From IMG/VR virus record IMGVR_UViG_3300046170_000524: a stretch of DNA of 64,000 nt; one strand, 5' to 3'. Below are positions 47,994 through 58,398 of the stretch, one piece after another. A program made the position numbers and the translations under genes. Position 1 is the stretch's first letter. Each line of letters begins with the position of its first letter. Under the pieces are notes generated by a model. It saw nothing but the letters and a program-made list of their open reading frames with translations, was not told where the DNA came from and did not search any database. Source of the DNA: a virus.

Positions 47994-48902
47994 CTACTTA
48001 AATATTTTTTTAGACAACCAAGCTAGAATTGAAGTGACGGCCATTCCTATTATTCTAAAAATAGATTTATTTTTCTTAGGCTCTATTTTTTTATTCGGGT
48101 CTACGGGTAAGGAATCAGATTTAGTTTTTAAATAGATTGGGCCTAGAGCATTAATTAGTATTTTTTCATACAAAGAGCTTTCCAAGTAAAAAAAACCTCT
48201 TTTACCAAACCATTTACCCCAACTGTTTTGAAACTCCCAATATAAATCGCCGTCAATTATTTTCCAGCCGGTCATAGCTATAGCGTGACCTCCAATCGGT
48301 TTAGATTTTAAGTATTTTTCTGAGTTAACAATTCCATTTGATGGGGTGTAGTATAAAGCTTCGTGCACATTAATAGATGTCCATAAAGATTCTTGAAGTA
48401 AAGCCTTTTTAATTAAATTATGATTACTTTTCAAAACAACATGATAAGACTCAATTTTATACTTAGAAGCATTCTGCTGTGCCCCCTCTATCATCTGAGT
48501 GTCTTCGTTATCTCTGTATGGCCAATATTCTTCTTCGCAGCAACCCTCGACAACCAAGCCCCTACATGCGCCTTTTATTGTTGTTCCTGAGTAATCTTCT
48601 CCGGGAAACGGGTCATTTTCCTTACCTTTTTTATATATCCACATAGCGCTTGGCTCTTTACCTTTAAATTCTGGAGTATCTCCATAAACCACCCTACCGC
48701 TGTGACCAACGCAAGACCCTATCTTACCTTGATTCTTAACTGATGGGGTTAAGTTTTTTCTGCTAAACTCTTTATTAGAGACTGATTGATTGCCGACAAG
48801 CATATCTTCGCTAAACAACCAATCCCTTTCGTCTACAGGAGTTTCGGGGACATTTAAGACTTTATTTTTGTATAAATTTTTTTTAATTATTTTTCCAATC
48901 AT
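47994..48902 (-). CDS. Papain-like cysteine peptidase (C1), start revised to MIGKIIKK
   Basis: QGKIGSCVG, GGHAI, QNSWG: Gln/Cys/His/Asn intact; C-terminal hydrophobic helix. Confidence 0.9.
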   Translation of the reverse strand: MIGKIIKKNLYKNKVLNVPETPVDERDWLFSEDMLVGNQSVSNKEFSRKNLTPSVKNQGKIGSCVGHSGRVVYGDTPEFKGKEPSAMWIYKKGKENDPFPGEDYSGTTIKGACRGLVVEGCCEEEYWPYRDNEDTQMIEGAQQNASKYKIESYHVVLKSNHNLIKKALLQESLWTSINVHEALYYTPSNGIVNSEKYLKSKPIGGHAIAMTGWKIIDGDLYWEFQNSWGKWFGKRGFFYLESSLYEKILINALGPIYLKTKSDSLPVDPNKKIEPKKNKSIFRIIGMAVTSILAWLSKKIFK

Positions 48903-48911
48903 ATAAGTTGT

Positions 48912-48928
48912 TACACATCTATAGTGTA
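48912..48928. promoter_or_regulatory. Back-to-back TACAC...GTGTA pair
   Basis: TACAC 48912-48916 and GTGTA 48924-48928 between divergent starts 48902 and 48939. Confidence 0.6.
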
Positions 48929-48938
48929 TATATATTAT

Positions 48939-49169
48939 ATGCGTTTTTTGTTTTGCTTTCTTTTTACTATAGGCTGCTCTCATAAAAAAGAGCCTATGCC
49001 GAGAGACACACTATTTTTAGATAAAAATAGAGATTGGTATCATTTATACGAGCAAGAGCTAAAAACTGCAATATATAATAAAGATGATGCAGCATTTTAC
49101 TTCTTTTGGCCAGAATACCTTAAAGAGATAGAAAAAAGAAAGCTTAATAGTGTAAGTCAAAAACAATGA
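48939..49169 (+). CDS. Putative lipoprotein
   Basis: MRFLFCFLFTIGC lipobox-like signal. Confidence 0.55.
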   Translation: MRFLFCFLFTIGCSHKKEPMPRDTLFLDKNRDWYHLYEQELKTAIYNKDDAAFYFFWPEYLKEIEKRKLNSVSQKQ

Positions 49170-50725
49170 ATTTTAAAATATTTTTTATTTGTCACGAAGA
49201 ATCTAATTCGTATAAAGATGCGTTTAATTTATTTGATTTGCTACCAGATGAGATTAAAAATTCTTTAGAAGAAGTAGAACTAATTGACACTCTTAATGTA
49301 GTTGATTTAACTCATAATTCATTGCAGAATATTACCCCAATAAGCAAAGAACAATCTATTTCTTTTTCAACAAATCCTCAACTTATTGGATTATGTCAAA
49401 CCCACATAAATATATGGCGCAAAGTCGCAGAGCAAGAGCTTGATTTTTGCTTTGTTATTGAAGATAATGTCAATTTTTCCGACTTCTTAACGCTTTTACT
49501 TTCCAATCCAGATATTCCAGAAAAATTAGATTTTGTAAATTTCACTTCAACAGATTTCTTATCCTCCGCTTGCTATTACATTTCAAATCGAGGTGCAAAA
49601 AAACTCATATCAATTCATGAAGACCCAAAATTACTTAATTTGGACATTTTTTACGAAAATAATTTTACTAAAAATTCAATTAAATGTGAGCATCTTAAAT
49701 TTATAGAATATTGTACTCTTGAAAAAGTAGGCTTCCATTATAGAATAAATTTCATCAACAAAGATCTGATAAGATATCACCCAAAAAATTATAAAAAAAT
49801 AGAAGATAATTTTGAATTTTGGAAAAAAGACTTAAGCATTACCTCTTGCATCTGTACTTATGGCAATTATGAATCCTGCAGAGAAACTCTTTTATCATTA
49901 ATACAACAAACTATATCAGATGATAAAAATAAAATTTTTATTATAGATAATTTTCCCATAAATCAAATCGATGGTGAGAGATTAGAGCATTTTAAAAAGT
50001 TAAAGTCTCTTTGCGATTTATATGATCACTGCGAGTATATTCACACCCCAACATCTGGGTTGTCCGAGTCTCGTAATATAGCTATAGATAAATGCACAAC
50101 TGACTTAATTTTTTACATAGACGATGATGCGATAGCAAATTTTGACTTACTTGAGAATTTTAAATCTAAATTTTTAAAATTCCAGAATCTTGCGGTTTGT
50201 GGTGGAAAAGTTGTCCCCAAGTGGATCAGCGAAAGACCTGACTGGCTAAACGATAATTTACTTAAGTTTTTATCAATACAAAATTCCGATTCAAAAAATG
50301 TCATTCTTACGGAAGAATCTGAGGAATATATAGTCGGAACAAATATGTGCTTTCGCACCTCTATTCTCAAAAAATCTGGAGGGTTTAATGTCGCATTAGG
50401 AAGGCGAGGTCAAATTTTAATGAGCGGAGAAGAAGATGAATTATTTTCTAGACTAAAACAAAATTATACATGTGTTTACAGCTCAGATTGCTTGGTTTAC
50501 CATAAAATATTTCCAGCAAGACTTGAAGAACATTGGTTTATAAAACGATGTGCTTGGCAATTAATTTCTAACAAATTTATCTTAGGACAAAAACACTCCT
50601 ACCCAGAAGAGTTAGAGATTTTTCTCAACCAAAACAAAGATAAACTATTTGCAAAAAATCTAGATTCTAAAAGTTTTTCAGATAAATTAAGCTATATTCA
50701 ATTACTGTTAGAATATCTTTTATAA
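49166..50725 (+). CDS. GT25-like plus GT2 fusion glycosyltransferase
   Basis: N: GLCQTHINIW...VIEDN, CYYISNRGAKKL; C: CICTY, IIDN, GLSESRN, YIDDDA. Confidence 0.8.
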   Translation: MNFKIFFICHEESNSYKDAFNLFDLLPDEIKNSLEEVELIDTLNVVDLTHNSLQNITPISKEQSISFSTNPQLIGLCQTHINIWRKVAEQELDFCFVIEDNVNFSDFLTLLLSNPDIPEKLDFVNFTSTDFLSSACYYISNRGAKKLISIHEDPKLLNLDIFYENNFTKNSIKCEHLKFIEYCTLEKVGFHYRINFINKDLIRYHPKNYKKIEDNFEFWKKDLSITSCICTYGNYESCRETLLSLIQQTISDDKNKIFIIDNFPINQIDGERLEHFKKLKSLCDLYDHCEYIHTPTSGLSESRNIAIDKCTTDLIFYIDDDAIANFDLLENFKSKFLKFQNLAVCGGKVVPKWISERPDWLNDNLLKFLSIQNSDSKNVILTEESEEYIVGTNMCFRTSILKKSGGFNVALGRRGQILMSGEEDELFSRLKQNYTCVYSSDCLVYHKIFPARLEEHWFIKRCAWQLISNKFILGQKHSYPEELEIFLNQNKDKLFAKNLDSKSFSDKLSYIQLLLEYLL

Positions 50726-51721
50726 ATGAAAAAAATTTTAAGTTTTTCCAGCAGTATAAAAAAAGACTCGATCATTTGTCTTTGTCCAATGCGCAATGAA
50801 GAGCATATTTTACATAGCTTCCTAGACCACTATTATTCGCACGGAGTCTCTCATTTTGTTTTTTTTGACAATTTATCTGATGATAATACAATTAATATAC
50901 TAAAAGATTTAAGCTCAAAATATAATATTGAAGCTTATATATGCGAAGAATCTTTTATTGCTTCCAAATGGGGTAGCAATTGGGCTAATGATTTTATGCA
51001 AAAATATTGCATTGATAATTGGTGCATCACTATTGATGCTGATGAATTTTTTATGCCAAAAAATAACCAAAAGATAATAGATTTAATCAGCAATCTTGAA
51101 GCACGTAAATTAAATTCTGCGAGATCAATACTCGTAGATATGTATCCAAAAAACTTAAATTCTGTACATAACCAAACTATAGAAAGTTCTTGTTTTTTTG
51201 ATCGGTTTAATGAAATATATTACAAAGATGGCTACAGCGATTTTGGTCAAAAATATGTCATGGGAGGACTTAGAAAAAGAGTTTATGATTCGTTTAATAT
51301 GATCAGTAAATGCAGTTTATTCAAAAACGAATTTTATTTATCTCACCATGTTAGCGGGGGATGGCACTGGATCAAACCTTTATCTGAATTTTACAACTTC
51401 TATCTTAATAATATAGCCATAGCACCAGTTTCATCAACATCATATTTTGATAAAAAATCTTACCTTGAAGCCGTTAAAAAAAGCTTAGAGACCGTTAGAG
51501 ATACAGAAGCATTTTGCGCTCTTTTGCATTATAAATTTTTAAGAAAAGATATCTACGCATTTTTCCAAGAAAGAGTTGAAAGAAATCAAGATTGGAATGA
51601 TAGCGAAGAATATAAAAATTATATTTCTCAAAAAGAAACATCATTTTTTCATGAGAGATACAGCGTAGATTCTTCTGATAATATCAATTTAGTATATAGC
51701 GAATTAATTGATAAATTATGA
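50726..51721 (+). CDS. GT-A glycosyltransferase (GT2_4/GT92-like)
   Basis: MRNEEHIL..FLDHY...FDNLSDDNT; ITIDADEF. Confidence 0.8.
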   Translation: MKKILSFSSSIKKDSIICLCPMRNEEHILHSFLDHYYSHGVSHFVFFDNLSDDNTINILKDLSSKYNIEAYICEESFIASKWGSNWANDFMQKYCIDNWCITIDADEFFMPKNNQKIIDLISNLEARKLNSARSILVDMYPKNLNSVHNQTIESSCFFDRFNEIYYKDGYSDFGQKYVMGGLRKRVYDSFNMISKCSLFKNEFYLSHHVSGGWHWIKPLSEFYNFYLNNIAIAPVSSTSYFDKKSYLEAVKKSLETVRDTEAFCALLHYKFLRKDIYAFFQERVERNQDWNDSEEYKNYISQKETSFFHERYSVDSSDNINLVYSELIDKL

Positions 51722-52440
51722 AAGCATACATGATAACATACATGAAATCCAAAGAGAGGGTTGAAAACTTTAAGCTGGCCAAGACTTTGTCTGATGGTAA
51801 TTTAAATTTATTTGAAGCGGTAGACGGACTTGAAAACTATGAATCTTTATGTGAATTTGATCGCAAGCATCATTTTCACACAGATTTTTACAAAGATAAA
51901 TGGAAAAACATGCCTGGAAAATTAGGTTGCAATTTATCTTATTCAGTTTTATTTAGCAAAATACTCAAAGAAGATCTCAAAGAAAATTGGTTTTTAATAT
52001 TAGAAGACGATGCTGGAGTAAAAAAAGGCTTTATCGAAGAAGCTGAATTAATTGCCGAAAAAGCCGATTCAATAGGCACTCATTTTGTACGGCTTCATGT
52101 GGGAGAAGGAAAAGGGTTTTGGCCAGAAGACACAGGTTATTGGAATTTTTCGAAATCGCAACAGTTTAATGAAGCTTTTTTAGTAGGTCACAATTTTTAT
52201 AAAATGATTCCGCAGTGGTACACTACCGCCCAATTAATTAACAAGGAGGGGATTAGAAGATTGCTTGAAGTTCGCCCTTGGAATGAAAACATTGATTTGC
52301 TATTAAATAGCTTTTCGCATCTTATTTTCGCAACGGCATACCCCTCTGAAAGTTTTTTCTCAAAAGGAAGTTGTGGAGTCGAAGATGATCAAAGCGAAAT
52401 GGGAAGTGTAATCTATGAAAACCAAACTTTTTTATCATGA
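51718..52440 (+). CDS. GT25-family glycosyltransferase
   Basis: FEAVDG, GKLGCNLSY, LILEDDA. Confidence 0.8.
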   Translation: MKAYMITYMKSKERVENFKLAKTLSDGNLNLFEAVDGLENYESLCEFDRKHHFHTDFYKDKWKNMPGKLGCNLSYSVLFSKILKEDLKENWFLILEDDAGVKKGFIEEAELIAEKADSIGTHFVRLHVGEGKGFWPEDTGYWNFSKSQQFNEAFLVGHNFYKMIPQWYTTAQLINKEGIRRLLEVRPWNENIDLLLNSFSHLIFATAYPSESFFSKGSCGVEDDQSEMGSVIYENQTFLS

Positions 52441-53153
52441 TAATATCACACTCAAAAAAATTTATTTTTATACATATTCCAAAATGCGCAGGCACATCAA
52501 TTAGAAAAAAAATAGAAAACCATTTCCATAAAAACGGAATGCTCGAAATGGAAGATTTAATTTCTTTTAAAGTGGGATATGACGAGCTACCTATATCAGG
52601 CACTTCGGCAAACTGGGAAATAATACATGATTATACAGAAGATCAGTTAAGGCTGTATGAAGAATTTCATCAACATAGCACCTTTTCTTTAGTAGAGTCT
52701 GTTTTTAATAGGGAAAAAATTAACTTAGACGAGTATTTTAAGTTTGCATTTTGCAGAAACCCTTGGGACAGAAAAGTATCTCAATATTTTTTTGGTAGAC
52801 AGCAAGCGGAAAAAGGACACGAATGGGCAGTGTCGAACAAAAATCTTCAAAAACCATTTAAACATTTTGCTTCGAGAGCTGAAAACTGGGGAAAATTTAG
52901 AGATGGGCAGCATCAGTGGGTTTTAAATAAAGAAGGTAAATTAGGCTTAGACTTTATCGGCAAATCAGAAAATCTTCAGCAAGATTTTAATTATGTTTGC
53001 GAAAAAATAGGCTTGCCTCAGATGGAGTTGCCGCATTCTAATAAATCTAAACACAAACATTACACAGAGTACTATGACGAGGAAGCTAAAAATTCGTTCG
53101 CCAAAAACTACTCAAAAGACATTGAATTTTTTAATTACAAATTTGGAGAATGA
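52437..53153 (+). CDS. Sulfotransferase (Sulfotransfer_2 type)
   Basis: 5'-PSB FIHIPKCAGTS; 3'-PB FCRNPWDRKVS. Confidence 0.9.
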   Translation: MIISHSKKFIFIHIPKCAGTSIRKKIENHFHKNGMLEMEDLISFKVGYDELPISGTSANWEIIHDYTEDQLRLYEEFHQHSTFSLVESVFNREKINLDEYFKFAFCRNPWDRKVSQYFFGRQQAEKGHEWAVSNKNLQKPFKHFASRAENWGKFRDGQHQWVLNKEGKLGLDFIGKSENLQQDFNYVCEKIGLPQMELPHSNKSKHKHYTEYYDEEAKNSFAKNYSKDIEFFNYKFGE

Positions 53154-53154
53154 A

Positions 53155-54138
53155 ATGTCATACATCGATCAAGCTGTTAAATTTCGGATGGGAAAGTGGC
53201 ATTTTCAAAAATATCCATCTAATTTAGAGCTTGACTGGGAAGATTATTCTTTATTTAGCCCCGACGACCAAAGATTTTTGTATTGGATAGAGAAATGTAA
53301 ATTTTTTGAAATCAAAAAAAACCCCGGTTTAATTTTAGATTCGAGAGATCACTTGAATGAAAAAAATCTAGAGTTAAGGATTAATCGATTACAGAAAAAT
53401 CATCATCTCAACCTTAAAAAATATCCATACGTATCTCACAATCGCCCTGCTGACAAAGATTATTCTATACTATGGTCTCTGAGCCAAACGCACGAAAGAA
53501 TAGTATCGAAATGGCAAGATCACTATAATTTTGAAGATAAAAAAGACGAAATCGTATGGAGGGGAGTCGCATCAGGGTTAGACCGCCAACTTAATCGCGT
53601 TGGTAAATTTTCTGATTTTAATAAAAGCATTAAAGAAGTTCAAAGGTTCATTTTTGTCAACAAATTTTCAAAAAAATATAATATAAAATTCGTTGACTTC
53701 CCCTTGAAATTTAAAAATAAATTTACTAAAGATAGATTGCAGGATTTTGATTTATTTCTTAAAAATAATCCTCACGCATTGGGCGAACAATTATCGTGGG
53801 CTCAAGATATTTGCTCTTATAAATACATACTAAACCTAGAAGGCTATGATTGGCCCTCTAGCTTATGCAAATCCTTACGGTCTAACAGTGTAACTATTGC
53901 AACGACCCCTAAGTGGCATAATATTTTACATTTTAAGCTTGAACCATGGGAGCACTATATTCCAATCAAAGATGATGGGTCGGACCTAGAGAATAAACTC
54001 GCATGGTGTAAATCCAATAACAAAGAATGTAAGAAAATCTCTGACAGGGCAAGTCTTTATATGTCTCAGTTTACCGAGGTCTCTGAAACTGAAATACAAA
54101 AAAAAATATTCAAAAAACTTCATGAAAACAGAATATAG
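53155..54138 (+). CDS. GT90/CAP10-like glycosyltransferase (start revised to MSYIDQ)
   Basis: IVWRG, YKYILNLEG, LEPWEHYIPIK.D.SDL. Confidence 0.85.
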   Translation: MSYIDQAVKFRMGKWHFQKYPSNLELDWEDYSLFSPDDQRFLYWIEKCKFFEIKKNPGLILDSRDHLNEKNLELRINRLQKNHHLNLKKYPYVSHNRPADKDYSILWSLSQTHERIVSKWQDHYNFEDKKDEIVWRGVASGLDRQLNRVGKFSDFNKSIKEVQRFIFVNKFSKKYNIKFVDFPLKFKNKFTKDRLQDFDLFLKNNPHALGEQLSWAQDICSYKYILNLEGYDWPSSLCKSLRSNSVTIATTPKWHNILHFKLEPWEHYIPIKDDGSDLENKLAWCKSNNKECKKISDRASLYMSQFTEVSETEIQKKIFKKLHENRI

Positions 54139-54754
54139 TCCTAATAAATTTCTTTTTATACATCTTCCAAAATGCGGAGGAATGTCGATGGAGCAGATCT
54201 GCAGAGATAATGGAATACTAATTGACCCAAGAAACGCAGACACTAAATATTTAAATGAAAAGTTTAATACTGATGTATATTGTAGCTTTGAGGACCAAAA
54301 AAAATTAAGTTTTTCTTTTTCTTTCGCAAGAAATCCATACGACAGGGTGGTTTCAGCCTGGAAATGCCCATGGGTTAGCGGAAAAAAAATATCTCAAAAT
54401 AATTTTAAAAATGAATTTCATGATTTTCGTGATTTCGTTTTTAATTTTTTACCTAATGAACACGACTTTTCTTTTTTTAGATGGTCTCATGTTATGCCTT
54501 TCACAGACCCAAGGTTCGCAATTTTTGACGATAAACAAGAACTTCAATTAAGTTTCTTGGGAAAACTGGAGACATATCAAGAAGATTTTGATTTCGTGTG
54601 TGATTCTATTAATATAAAAAAACAAAACTTACCTCATAAAAATAAAACTAATCATAAAAAATATACTGAATATTATGATGACGAAACTCGTCAAATCGTT
54701 GCGGAAAAATACGCAAAAGACATTGAGTATTTTGGGTACAAATTTGCGGAATAA
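54122..54754 (+). CDS. Sulfotransferase (Sulfotransfer_2 type), paralogue
   Basis: FIHLPKCGGMS; FARNPYDRVVS; C-terminus homologous to 52437-53153. Confidence 0.9.
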   Translation: MKTEYSPNKFLFIHLPKCGGMSMEQICRDNGILIDPRNADTKYLNEKFNTDVYCSFEDQKKLSFSFSFARNPYDRVVSAWKCPWVSGKKISQNNFKNEFHDFRDFVFNFLPNEHDFSFFRWSHVMPFTDPRFAIFDDKQELQLSFLGKLETYQEDFDFVCDSINIKKQNLPHKNKTNHKKYTEYYDDETRQIVAEKYAKDIEYFGYKFAE

Positions 54755-54763
54755 TTATTGAGC

Positions 54764-55567
54764 TTATTCTGGTCTTTTGCCTAAAGGTTTTCCATCTTGA
54801 CCAATTTGACCATCCCTGATCTTGGTGGCAGACACTTCTTGTAATTCTTTACTTAGCTCTAGTTGTTCGATATTATAACCAACACCTCTTCCATAAAATA
54901 CATCCATAATATTAGGCAGTTCAACAACCTTAATTTTGTTTCCGAATTCGATACAAGCAGAATGTATTTCTTTTTTGACTTTTTCAAAATCATAGGGATT
55001 ACTATCATCAATTCCTCCAACATCTCTTAATGCAATACAGCATTGCCCTGTTCTTTTAATTGCTTCCGCAACAAGGCTTTTGTGCCCAATATGAAATGGC
55101 TGATATCTACCTATGAGCAATGCAGTTGGAGCTTGGTTATCCCACGCTTCAGTTTCATTTAATTTACCAACAACTTTACTAACCCACTCTTCTGGAGTTC
55201 CATCTATTAATCTCAGGTCATAGTTCAAAGGCTTTTCAAACATCTTGTTTGTATCTTCATATCTACCTTCTTGAATTCTATCTACCCATATTGTAAAATC
55301 TGCATTAAATGCCTTCCTAGTTTCTTGGGTTGGACACACAAAATCCGCAATCACATAATTACCTCCCATTTTTGCCCAGTCACACAACTTGCTCATTCTT
55401 TTTGCATGAGAAAGCCGATCCTCTTCCGAGAAACCCAGTTCCGAATAGATGTCCTGCCTTACAGCATCTGCATTAAACCAAGCGGCGTTTAACTTGGCAA
55501 CGAGCTTTTCAGCTAGTGTCGTCTTTCCTGATCCAGGAAGTCCCATTATAAGAATTTTTCTTTTCAT
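54764..55567 (-). CDS. cysC: APS kinase-like domain fused to a HIGH-family nucleotidyltransferase
   Basis: GLPGSGKTT, NADAVR, LGFSEEDR, FVCP; then GRYQPFHIGH and VSATKIR. Confidence 0.75.
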   Translation of the reverse strand: MKRKILIMGLPGSGKTTLAEKLVAKLNAAWFNADAVRQDIYSELGFSEEDRLSHAKRMSKLCDWAKMGGNYVIADFVCPTQETRKAFNADFTIWVDRIQEGRYEDTNKMFEKPLNYDLRLIDGTPEEWVSKVVGKLNETEAWDNQAPTALLIGRYQPFHIGHKSLVAEAIKRTGQCCIALRDVGGIDDSNPYDFEKVKKEIHSACIEFGNKIKVVELPNIMDVFYGRGVGYNIEQLELSKELQEVSATKIRDGQIGQDGKPLGKRPE

Positions 55568-56866: not shown

Positions 56867-57364
56867 ATGAGTGCAAAAAAAAAATTTAAAAAAGTAGCTA
56901 AGTTTCGTAAATTGCGTAAAAATATTTGCAACAGCTTCAAAAAGGAATTGATCAGCATAAAAAACGATGGAGACAAAAGTTTATTAATGCATCGACTGAA
57001 ACAAATGTCAGACCATGTAATCTGCAAACTTAAACCTGAAACCATCAGAAAAAACAGAAGAAAGTTTCATTTATTAATGTATTCAGATCAAAAATGTTTC
57101 TATACTAGAAAGATTCGTTCACTTCCAACTCGGGCGCTCAAAAAACAAAATTGCTTTGTATGTGAAGAAAAATCAACAGAGATACATCATATAATTCAGA
57201 TTCAAAACGGAGGTCCACCTGCAGAAGTTAATAATCTTATACCAATTTGCTCTTCTTGCCATCAAAAAATTCATCCTTGGATGTCTAAAAGTTTACCGCG
57301 AATAGATGGATTAAAACATGCGTCAGAGATAATTCCAGAAGAAATATCTAACTTATTGAATTGA
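56867..57364 (+). CDS. HNH endonuclease
   Basis: CFVC...EIHHII...GG...NNLIPICSSCHQKIH. Confidence 0.85.
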   Translation: MSAKKKFKKVAKFRKLRKNICNSFKKELISIKNDGDKSLLMHRLKQMSDHVICKLKPETIRKNRRKFHLLMYSDQKCFYTRKIRSLPTRALKKQNCFVCEEKSTEIHHIIQIQNGGPPAEVNNLIPICSSCHQKIHPWMSKSLPRIDGLKHASEIIPEEISNLLN

Positions 57365-57701: not shown

Positions 57702-57874
57702 GACCTTGGAGAAATGTAAACGCTTTAGGCAAAGTATGCATTATATTTTGCGTAATTAATATGTTTTTAGCTATAAAATTAGCATTAATACCAAGTTATT
57801 TATGTTTATTTCAATTTTTTTTCGCAGCCACTTGCGGATTAGGAACTTATTCAAACAAATGTCAAAAAGAGTAG
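57698..57874 (+). CDS. Small membrane protein
   Basis: TTG overlapping the upstream stop; two hydrophobic segments. Confidence 0.5.
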   Translation: MRPWRNVNALGKVCIIFCVINMFLAIKLALIPSYLCLFQFFFAATCGLGTYSNKCQKE

Positions 57875-58398
57875 AAAAAAGACACAATGGAAATACTTTA
57901 TTTCGAGGGCATAGTATGCTCAACGGCTTAATAAAAGATTTACTTGCATACTTTCAATCTGCCTCTTGGACAGATGAAGATGAATCAACTAAGTTAAAAA
58001 TATTTTCAAATATAATTAAACCCAATAAATGTTGGTATTGTGGAGTTAAGGATCAAAGAGATATGGATCACTTTATGCCAACGAATGGAAGATTATTTGA
58101 CCCCCCTATGTTTGGTTTAGAGCATCAAGGAAACATCATTCCTTCTTGCAAGTCTTGCAACGCAAACAAAAGCAATAAGCATCCTATCGCTTGGCTTAAA
58201 CGGGGCATCGTAACTAAAGGTAAGGAATTTACATTCCCTAAAAAAAGAGTCGCGGCGTTTGAATTATTTTTCGATACATTTGAAAATAAACTCGTTGCAG
58301 ATAAAGATCTAACAGATATAATAGTTAATCAAGCAATACCGAAATGTGAGGCACAAACAAGAGAATTAGCTAATTTTGAAGAATGGATTCAACTATAA
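57859..58398 (+). CDS. HNH endonuclease (start revised to MSKRVEK)
   Basis: CWYCG...MDHFMP...GNIIPSCKSCNANK. Confidence 0.85.
   Translation: MSKRVEKRHNGNTLFRGHSMLNGLIKDLLAYFQSASWTDEDESTKLKIFSNIIKPNKCWYCGVKDQRDMDHFMPTNGRLFDPPMFGLEHQGNIIPSCKSCNANKSNKHPIAWLKRGIVTKGKEFTFPKKRVAAFELFFDTFENKLVADKDLTDIIVNQAIPKCEAQTRELANFEEWIQL

Follow-up and report, generated by a model that had tools for sequence, protein, structure and literature searches.

Can sulfate be activated by an enzyme that is neither Sat nor CysDN? The question is raised by a gene in a 64,000-nucleotide stretch of viral DNA (IMG/VR record IMGVR_UViG_3300046170_000524; the whole stretch is called the window below). The gene, named P0001 here, joins a domain that resembles adenosine 5'-phosphosulfate (APS) kinase to a small domain that resembles nicotinamide mononucleotide (NMN) adenylyltransferase (NMNAT). 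ATP sulfurylase catalyzes the step with which all sulfate activation begins, and to our knowledge only two types of it are known, Sat and CysDN. We consider that P0001 is probably a minimal bifunctional 3'-phosphoadenosine 5'-phosphosulfate (PAPS) synthase whose ATP sulfurylase is of a non-orthologous type. A wider proposal, to which we give slightly better than even chances, is that, next to Sat and CysDN, the NMNAT-derived domain of about 120 amino acids makes up a third class of ATP sulfurylase that is orthologous to neither. Under this proposal, the stand-alone domain would be the missing sat partner of AprBA in most SAR11 bacteria, together with a mini APS kinase it would make SAR11 PAPS, and the phage fusion would be the smallest known PAPS synthase and an auxiliary gene that drives glycan sulfation. 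A literature search found no paper on this fusion and none in which the SAR11 gene is called a sulfurylase. The gene and its two parts are as follows.

54764..55567, minus strand: P0001, kinase-transferase fusion gene encoding 267 amino acids in two domains; stop codon at 54764-54766
55151..55567, minus strand: N-terminal domain of P0001 (residues 1-139), a shortened APS-kinase-like P-loop kinase
54767..55150, minus strand: C-terminal domain of P0001 (residues 140-267), a minimal HxGH nucleotidyltransferase and proposed sulfate adenylyltransferase

Read on the plus strand, 54764-55567 is riddled with stops; the open frame is that of the minus strand. The encoded protein carries the motifs GLPGSGKTT (residues 9-17), NADAVR (32-37), LGFSEEDR (44-51), GRYQPFHIGH (153-162) and SATKIR (246-251). 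Because these motifs are invariant in an alignment of 43 diverse homologues (alignment A1), they are not there by chance. Homologues are numerous (7161 matches in one search and 2580 in another). P0001 also matches the phage protein family PHROG 10255, annotated as 'kinase', at E 1.5e-52, with residues 4-252 on profile positions 3-226 of 230; members of this family include 'kinase' genes of the Xylella phages Sano and Salvo. AlphaFold2 with A1 as input gave a two-domain model with a mean predicted local distance difference test score (pLDDT) of 92.8. The model made from the single sequence was unusable (pLDDT 35.6), and the A1-based model was used.

The N-terminal half is a trimmed APS kinase from which the helical lid is mostly deleted. 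Pfam APS_kinase (PF01583) matches residues 5-87 (E 6e-13, 49.5 bits against a cut-off of 21.1), and it is the end of this match at position 92 of 152 (it spans profile positions 5-92), together with the loss of most of the lid, that marks the kinase as trimmed. The score against TIGR00455 is 44.1 bits, under the cut-off of 138.7. Profile searches matched APS kinases of the PDB at E 6e-16 to 1e-12. In HMMER alignments to 2yvu, 7yq0 and 2pey, NADAVR falls on DGDxxR and LGFSEEDR on LGFSxEDR, column for column; FVCP of P0001 aligns with F(I/V)SP of solved APS kinases, and in a weak second segment FEKP lies on YExP. The Walker A motif GLPGSGKTT is present, and among the 43 homologues G9, G14, K15 and R37 are invariant and D34, F46 and R51 are at least 90% conserved. 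The first Asp of DGDxxR is Asn in P0001 and several homologues have DGD. The Asp and Arg of D-x-x-R and the Phe and Arg of LGFSxxDR presumably bind Mg2+ and APS (its phosphosulfate and adenine). The half is 51% identical to a SAR11 gene of 135 amino acids (L134:7582-7989).

Structural comparison leads to the same family. The matches that Foldseek and VIA-align listed for P0001 fell on the kinase half, and the fold comparison covers this half. VIA-align superposed it on 4rfv with Z 19.1 and a root mean square deviation of 1.5 Å over 126 residues, on 2yvu with Z 18.7 and on 2gks with Z 18.0. Gluconate kinase was the next best family (Z 16.6), followed by shikimate kinases (about 13 to 13.8), and the best 48 Foldseek matches are nearly all APS kinases. 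A NadR-like reading, in which a ribosylnicotinamide kinase would be joined to an NMNAT, was dropped; the kinase fits APS kinase far better than AAA_28/NRK, with Z 10.8 for NRK1 against 19.

Judged on its sequence, the C-terminal half is by descent a cut-down NadM or archaeal NMNAT and not a Sat. A profile made from this domain by itself (A2) matched Francisella NadM (2qjt, 6e-9) and Methanocaldococcus jannaschii MJ0541 NMNAT (1f9a, 4e-8) in the PDB. It reached phosphopantetheine adenylyltransferase (PPAT) only at E 0.06-0.4 and no Sat-type ATP sulfurylase, even at E <= 10. Pfam CTP_transf_like matches residues 151-175 (26.4 bits against a cut-off of 21), and NCBIfam gives weak NadM/NMNAT matches on residues 149-226 (TIGR01527, 19.9 against 181.2 bits; NF002243, 23.2 against 127). 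Alignment to NMNAT stops at residue 65-78 and restarts at GY...SGTEIR (1f9a residues 110-133). The domain lacks about 25 NMNAT residues between strand 3 and the GY...SGTxIR end, and in their place stands YGR(D/G)VGY, an invariant family motif that is new relative to NMNAT and reads YGRGVGY in P0001. We take the deleted stretch to be the one that bears the nicotinamide-stacking Trp and binds NMN. In the model, the domain is built of three strands and two helices, with a long ordered loop.

The domain shows no specific likeness to Sat. When the domain was aligned to seven SAR11 Sat proteins, hhalign gave a probability of 6% and covered the HxGH stretch only. The SAR11 Sat proteins show QTRNIPHFGH and GRDHAG, and the domain has neither motif. 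The best PF01747 (Sat) match, on the C-terminal domain of a homologue, has E 0.002 and is under the cut-off. Residues invariant in the 43 homologues are G153, R154, Q156, H159 and H162 around HxGH, G226, R227 and G230, and R251. HxGH and ISxTxxR residues are kept across sequences only 30-45% identical, and because they are invariant in such diverse homologues the domain is probably catalytically active. It is 51% identical to a SAR11 stand-alone gene of 126 amino acids (L168:5619-5999).

These relationships suggest another reading, which we regard as quite unlikely. The kinase half alone would serve sulfation with host APS (from AprBA or CysDN), and the C-terminal domain would be a fused ordinary adenylyltransferase for NMN, nicotinic acid mononucleotide or another step of nicotinamide adenine dinucleotide (NAD) or ADP-ribose metabolism. 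NadM and archaeal NMNAT are indeed its best sequence relatives, and its GRxQPxHxGH and NP(F/Y) motifs are of the NMNAT type. However, the stretch from strand 3 to the GY...SGTxIR end is shorter than in NMNAT by the 25 or so residues described above, and the scores are far under the NMNAT cut-offs. More evidence on both sides comes from the genomic context, given below. The original prediction for this locus had described a two-domain open reading frame (ORF) of 267 amino acids with the five motifs quoted above, APS-kinase hallmarks in its N-terminal half and a NadM/NMNAT-like C-terminal half, all of which the searches bear out. It had also taken SATKIR for a KMSKS-type motif; this is instead the ISxTxxR motif of the cytidylyltransferase-like superfamily.

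Two sulfotransferase genes lie beside P0001. They belong to a plus-strand run (49166-54754) that comprises, in this order:

49166-50725, plus strand: GT2/GT25 fusion glycosyltransferase (Pfam)
50726-51721, plus strand: GT2_4 glycosyltransferase (Pfam)
51718-52440, plus strand: GT25 glycosyltransferase (Pfam)
52437..53153, plus strand: sulfotransferase, presumed PAPS consumer (Pfam Sulfotransfer_2, E 6.5e-16)
53074..54138, plus strand: GT90-family glycosyltransferase, between both sulfotransferases (Pfam Glyco_transf_90, E 6.5e-18)
54122..54754, plus strand: second sulfotransferase (Pfam Sulfotransfer_2, E 1.9e-15)

The window belongs to a large tailed phage, with tape-measure and tail genes and a GC content of about 33%. 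A profile from the seven SAR11 Sat proteins, run against all six frames of the window, found no Sat at E <= 10. Genes near-identical to P0001 are present on marine contigs of 190-240 kb, and a megablast search with 10 kb of the window against phage records gave no match. A papain-family (C1) cysteine protease gene, unusual in a phage, lies upstream of the glycosyltransferase and sulfotransferase run (47994-48983, minus strand). Just past the fusion gene are two HNH endonuclease genes (56867-57364 and 57802-58398, plus strand).

Does the fusion accompany sulfotransferases in other phages? Two surveys were made, one of 80 viral loci with 8-kb flanks and one of 38 phage records that bear the gene. 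Antisense artefacts aside, sulfotransferase is the commonest neighbor family of the 80 loci (20 by BLAST clustering, 24 by iterated profile); GDP-mannose dehydratase and HldE-like genes are other frequent neighbors. PF03567 (Sulfotransfer_2) was found in 26 of the 38 records, in up to 11 copies, and in none of 14 control genomes. Four further records have Sulfotransfer_1/3 (PF13469/PF00685) within about 5 kb, and the total, with the unannotated one of Xylella phage Sano included, comes to 30-32 of the 38. PF01747 (Sat) was absent from all 38, the sole weak match being the C-terminal domain itself. PF01507 (PAPS_reduct/CysD) was absent from the 19 related near-complete phage records that were searched, a scan for cysDN that did not extend to the window. 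In Ralstonia phage phiRSL1 the kinase stands alone, clustered with nucleotidyltransferases and a sulfotransferase. A kinase near a sulfotransferase speaks for the PAPS synthase reading; that this phage manages with the kinase alone is also a point for an NMNAT-like role of the second domain.

Phages of the Sano type have a Sulfotransfer_4-like gene two genes upstream of the fusion, annotated as hypothetical in both of the following cases:

L002:4978-5556: Sulfotransfer_4-like gene Bhz60_00032, 26.2 bits against a cut-off of 22.8
L001:4969-5556: Sulfotransfer_4-like gene of Xylella phage Sano (gp33), 20.7 bits, cut-off 22.8

By these matches, Sano-type phages may also sulfate something. The gene order is sulfotransferase-like gene, NADAR gene and kinase fusion, with a MazG gene nearby. 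The position of the fusion directly after NADAR, with MazG near, is again in favor of an adenylyltransferase of NAD or ADP-ribose metabolism.

Some phages without a recognized sulfotransferase have, directly upstream of the fusion, families of 205-216 amino acids with P-loop-like N-termini (GAPGSKWS, GPQGSGNH; L066:6099-7992, L081:6716-7992 and L048:194-808), which gave no Pfam match. The candidate sulfotransferases of L066 and L081 were not accepted, as neither Pfam nor hhalign confirmed them; a language-model look-up that puts one of them among viral 'sulfotransferase family' clusters is a lead only. Calls at L065, L082 and L083 were also set aside. They came from our own iterated profile only, which is circular for L065, and Pfam gave no confirmation.

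Other observations concern the family at large. In one phage group, a tryptophan-halogenase-family gene (L055:9291-10835, E 6e-105) follows the fusion at a distance of 0.5 kb. In four metagenomic proteins (P0121, P0188, P0199 and P0198), a DUF4118 membrane domain is joined at either end to the mini APS kinase or to the whole fusion, which suggests that membrane-anchored versions exist. The contigs of P0121 and of a stand-alone C-terminal domain (P0221) are too short to show their gene neighborhoods. A likeness of the DUF4118 fusion to the N-terminal half of KdpD was dropped, as no KdpD family matched, and P0266, in which the C-terminal domain is joined to a chorismate synthase fragment, was ignored as a seemingly chimeric or truncated call. 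Fused genes with a C-terminal domain 84-91% identical to that of the window were also found in two bacterial metagenome-assembled genomes (MAGs). One is a 'Cellvibrionales' MAG (L088; JAYQMT010000004.1, 210,818 bp, the size of a phage genome) and the other a 'Halobacteriovorax' MAG (L087; PBIO01000001.1, 34 kb). Both are probably phage contigs that were binned into bacterial MAGs.

Cellular homologues of the second domain give a separate line of support, one that the original prediction did not anticipate. A pattern search of bacterial genomes with the C-terminal domain gave more than 480 places, nearly all in Pelagibacteraceae and at 52-59% identity. Complete SAR11 chromosomes encode the two halves in separate neighboring genes, one of 135 and the other of about 125 amino acids. 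The halves are fused in some SAR11 and in some other members of the Alphaproteobacteria, in one case immediately behind a Sulfotransfer_2 gene (92 bits). Most SAR11 are without an ATP sulfurylase although AprAB is present (PMC10356861), and sulfotransferases are reported from the hypervariable region of Pelagibacter (bioRxiv 10.64898/2026.04.03.716430). Four complete SAR11 genomes gave no match to Sat or to CysD/CysH; all four have AprA and two have Sulfotransfer_2.

A larger set of 151 Pelagibacterales genomes, at least 80% complete, was used to examine co-distribution. The small transferase is present in 122 of them, AprA in 123 and Sat in 7. Both transferase and AprA were found in 117 genomes, the transferase only in 5, AprA only in 6 and neither in 23 (odds ratio 90, Fisher p 4e-17, uncorrected for phylogeny). 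The tallies include an unpublished genome (G119) that is positive for both; without it, 116 of 150 have both. The SAR11 Sat gene is followed by a gene for a pyruvate-kinase-barrel protein in L175, L176 and L177 (genomes G091, G068 and G111) and by a glycerophosphotransferase gene in two cases (L171 and L172). Because two different genes follow Sat, two separate acquisitions are suggested.

In 23 genomes the transferase lies at most 2 kb from aprA, in two arrangements. The convergent arrangement (L167) has the mini kinase and the transferase facing a 116-amino-acid ORF, aprA, aprB and a 265-amino-acid membrane ORF. The co-directional arrangement (L168) consists of the transferase, a 263-amino-acid membrane ORF, aprB, aprA and the 116-amino-acid ORF. 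In four genomes with the latter arrangement, the transferase stands upstream of aprBA with no adjacent kinase. Three of these four gave no APS-kinase-family match and the fourth a sub-threshold match only; the absence of a match in the three means that the small transferase by itself is tied to APS. The membrane ORF, with four or more hydrophobic segments, is a putative AprM. We take it that sat often sits in the apr clusters of other sulfur oxidizers, at the place where the SAR11 transferase stands. The conserved 116-amino-acid ORF, directly after aprA (L167:7019-7369, minus strand; L168:9243-9593, plus strand), has no Pfam match and may be an unrecognized component of the apr cluster.

This context bears on the alternatives. 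A stand-alone form upstream of aprBA, in genomes without APS kinase, is left unexplained by NAD metabolism, and the co-distribution with aprA (117/5/6/23) likewise argues against an ordinary NMN adenylyltransferase. In a second alternative, which we think unlikely, the domain would act on APS or PAPS without being an ATP sulfurylase. It could serve as a nucleotide-binding regulatory or scaffold module for the kinase and AprBA, or catalyze, for example, the conversion of APS and phosphate to ADP and sulfate. What the genomic context points to is the handling of APS as a whole (APS kinase, AprBA, sulfotransferases) and not one particular reaction, and the domain is unusually small. Precedent for degenerate partners exists, as fungal ATP sulfurylase has a non-catalytic APS-kinase-like regulatory domain. 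Invariance of HxGH and ISxTxxR over sequences 30-45% identical nevertheless argues for catalysis, and SAR11 with AprBA and without sat need some enzyme that leads from APS to sulfate (PMC10356861).

We therefore return to the proposal of a PAPS synthase with a non-orthologous sulfurylase, for which the genomic associations with sulfotransferases and aprA are circumstantial backing. In the proposed mechanism, the C-terminal domain (about 125 amino acids) would transfer AMP from ATP onto sulfate to give APS and pyrophosphate, which is the ATP sulfurylase reaction (EC 2.7.7.4), with sulfate possibly bound by R154 and R227. The shortened APS kinase of the N-terminal domain would phosphorylate the 3'-OH of APS to form PAPS, and the fusion of both domains in the phage would pull the unfavorable first step forward. 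PAPS would be passed to the phage sulfotransferases, which together with the neighboring glycosyltransferases would probably act during infection to assemble a sulfated glycan. In SAR11, the small transferase would also run in reverse behind AprBA, converting APS and pyrophosphate to ATP and sulfate, and this reverse reaction would fill the place of the 'missing sat' in SAR11 sulfite oxidation. What the analysis itself establishes are the domain identities, the fold of the kinase half, the conserved motifs, the lost NMNAT segment and the genomic associations; specificity for sulfate and the direction of flux are what we infer here. SAR11 would be the host of the phage, judging by the approximately 51% identity to SAR11 genes and the low GC content, these being the whole of its support.

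Several observations weigh against this proposal. The C-terminal domain is very small, with a model of three strands and a long loop, and by descent it is a relative of NMNAT (1f9a, 2qjt) with no specific similarity to Sat. In the window, the stop codon of P0001 is 9 bp from that of the sulfotransferase gene at 54122..54754; the two genes are convergent, hence P0001 converges on the sulfotransferase operon and is no member of it. Among the 38 phage records, 4-6 have no firmly recognized sulfotransferase, and the Sano-type position directly after NADAR points to NAD/ADP-ribose metabolism. The co-occurrence of transferase and aprA in SAR11 is uncorrected for shared ancestry. Of the seven SAR11 genomes that have Sat, six also have the small transferase, and Sat and the transferase are therefore not complementary. 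Full-length CysC is also present in two of the four complete SAR11 genomes. Finally, in most SAR11 the gene pair is about 50 kb or more from aprA, amid genes of one-carbon and coenzyme A (CoA) metabolism.

A third alternative is modeled on CoA synthesis, in which PPAT and dephospho-CoA kinase carry out adenylyl transfer followed by 3'-phosphorylation. With the same chemical logic, the pair could make some other 3'-phosphorylated adenylate and its sulfur context would be a coincidence. JGI names some family members 'phosphopantetheine adenylyltransferase' fusions, and the neighbors of the pair in the complete SAR11 genome L134 include enoyl-CoA hydratase and a CoA-binding protein. We hold this to be very improbable, as the kinase superposes with Z 17-19 on APS kinases and about 11 on dephospho-CoA kinases, PPAT is reached by the C-terminal domain only at the E values given above, and the enrichment of sulfotransferases and aprA would be left unexplained. 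With regard to the preferred proposal, the original prediction had placed the gene next to sulfotransferases in a window without sat, and both statements agree with the searches described here. It had also asked whether the fusion co-occurs with sulfotransferases elsewhere. With Sulfotransfer_2 in 26 of 38 records, Sulfotransfer_1/3 in 4 more and the Sulfotransfer_4-like genes of Sano-type phages, the fusion is not commonly found without them. The idea of a non-orthologous ATP sulfurylase gains circumstantial support from the sulfotransferase context and from the aprA linkage in SAR11 genomes without sat.

What would follow if the proposal is true? SAR11 are among the most abundant bacteria of the ocean. 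They have AprBA and sulfotransferases, and the route between APS and sulfate is a gap in most of them, which are without a known ATP sulfurylase (PMC10356861). A conserved enzyme of 125 amino acids beside aprBA would close this gap, SAR11 sulfite oxidation would be complete with a substrate-level gain of ATP, and the modeling of marine fluxes of sulfite, taurine and sulfur derived from dimethylsulfoniopropionate would change. Large marine phages would bring a complete miniaturized sulfate-donor supply for up to 11 sulfotransferases, and a PAPS synthase of 267 amino acids would be of practical value for sulfation with enzymes or within cells. The present work adds the co-distribution and adjacency with aprA, the kinase-free arrangement in the apr operon and the hidden sulfotransferase of Sano-type phages.

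P0001 can be compared with four known systems. With CysC (PF01583; 4rfv, 2yvu, 7yq1, 1m7g) it shares the P-loop, D-x-x-R, LGFSxxDR, F(V/I)(C/S)P and the fold, whereas its kinase has only about 139 amino acids and has lost most of the helical lid region. NadM and archaeal NMNAT (2qjt, 1f9a, 1hyb) share GR(F/Y)QPFHxGH, the NP(F/Y) segment and S(A/G)TxIR with its C-terminal domain. This domain differs from them in having about 125 residues as against about 170, in the replacement of some 25 residues by YGR(D/G)VGY, and in a genomic context of APS and PAPS and not of NAD. The Sat (PF01747) of sat-aprBA clusters is alike in the proposed reaction and in the broad HxxH nucleotidyltransferase superfamily. 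The C-terminal domain is without QxRNxxHxxH, GRDHAG and a Sat profile match, and is about one third of the size of Sat. Its SAR11 homologue presumably holds the position that sat frequently has beside the aprMBA of sulfur oxidizers. P0001 was recognized neither as a Sat nor as a full-length CysC or NMNAT. The metazoan PAPS synthases PAPSS1 and PAPSS2 (1x6v, 1xjq) have about 620 amino acids against 267, with a Sat-type sulfurylase that includes QxRNxxHxxH, GRDHAG and a PUA-like subdomain; the second domain of P0001 is NMNAT-derived and matches no Sat profile, and its kinase lid is shortened. Alike are the single chain, the N-terminal APS kinase, which in P0001 superposes on the kinase domain of PAPSS1, and the C-terminal position of the sulfate-activating domain, proposed as such in P0001. 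On this comparison, P0001 would be a PAPS synthase that has the kinase-first architecture of PAPSS and is built from a non-orthologous candidate sulfurylase.

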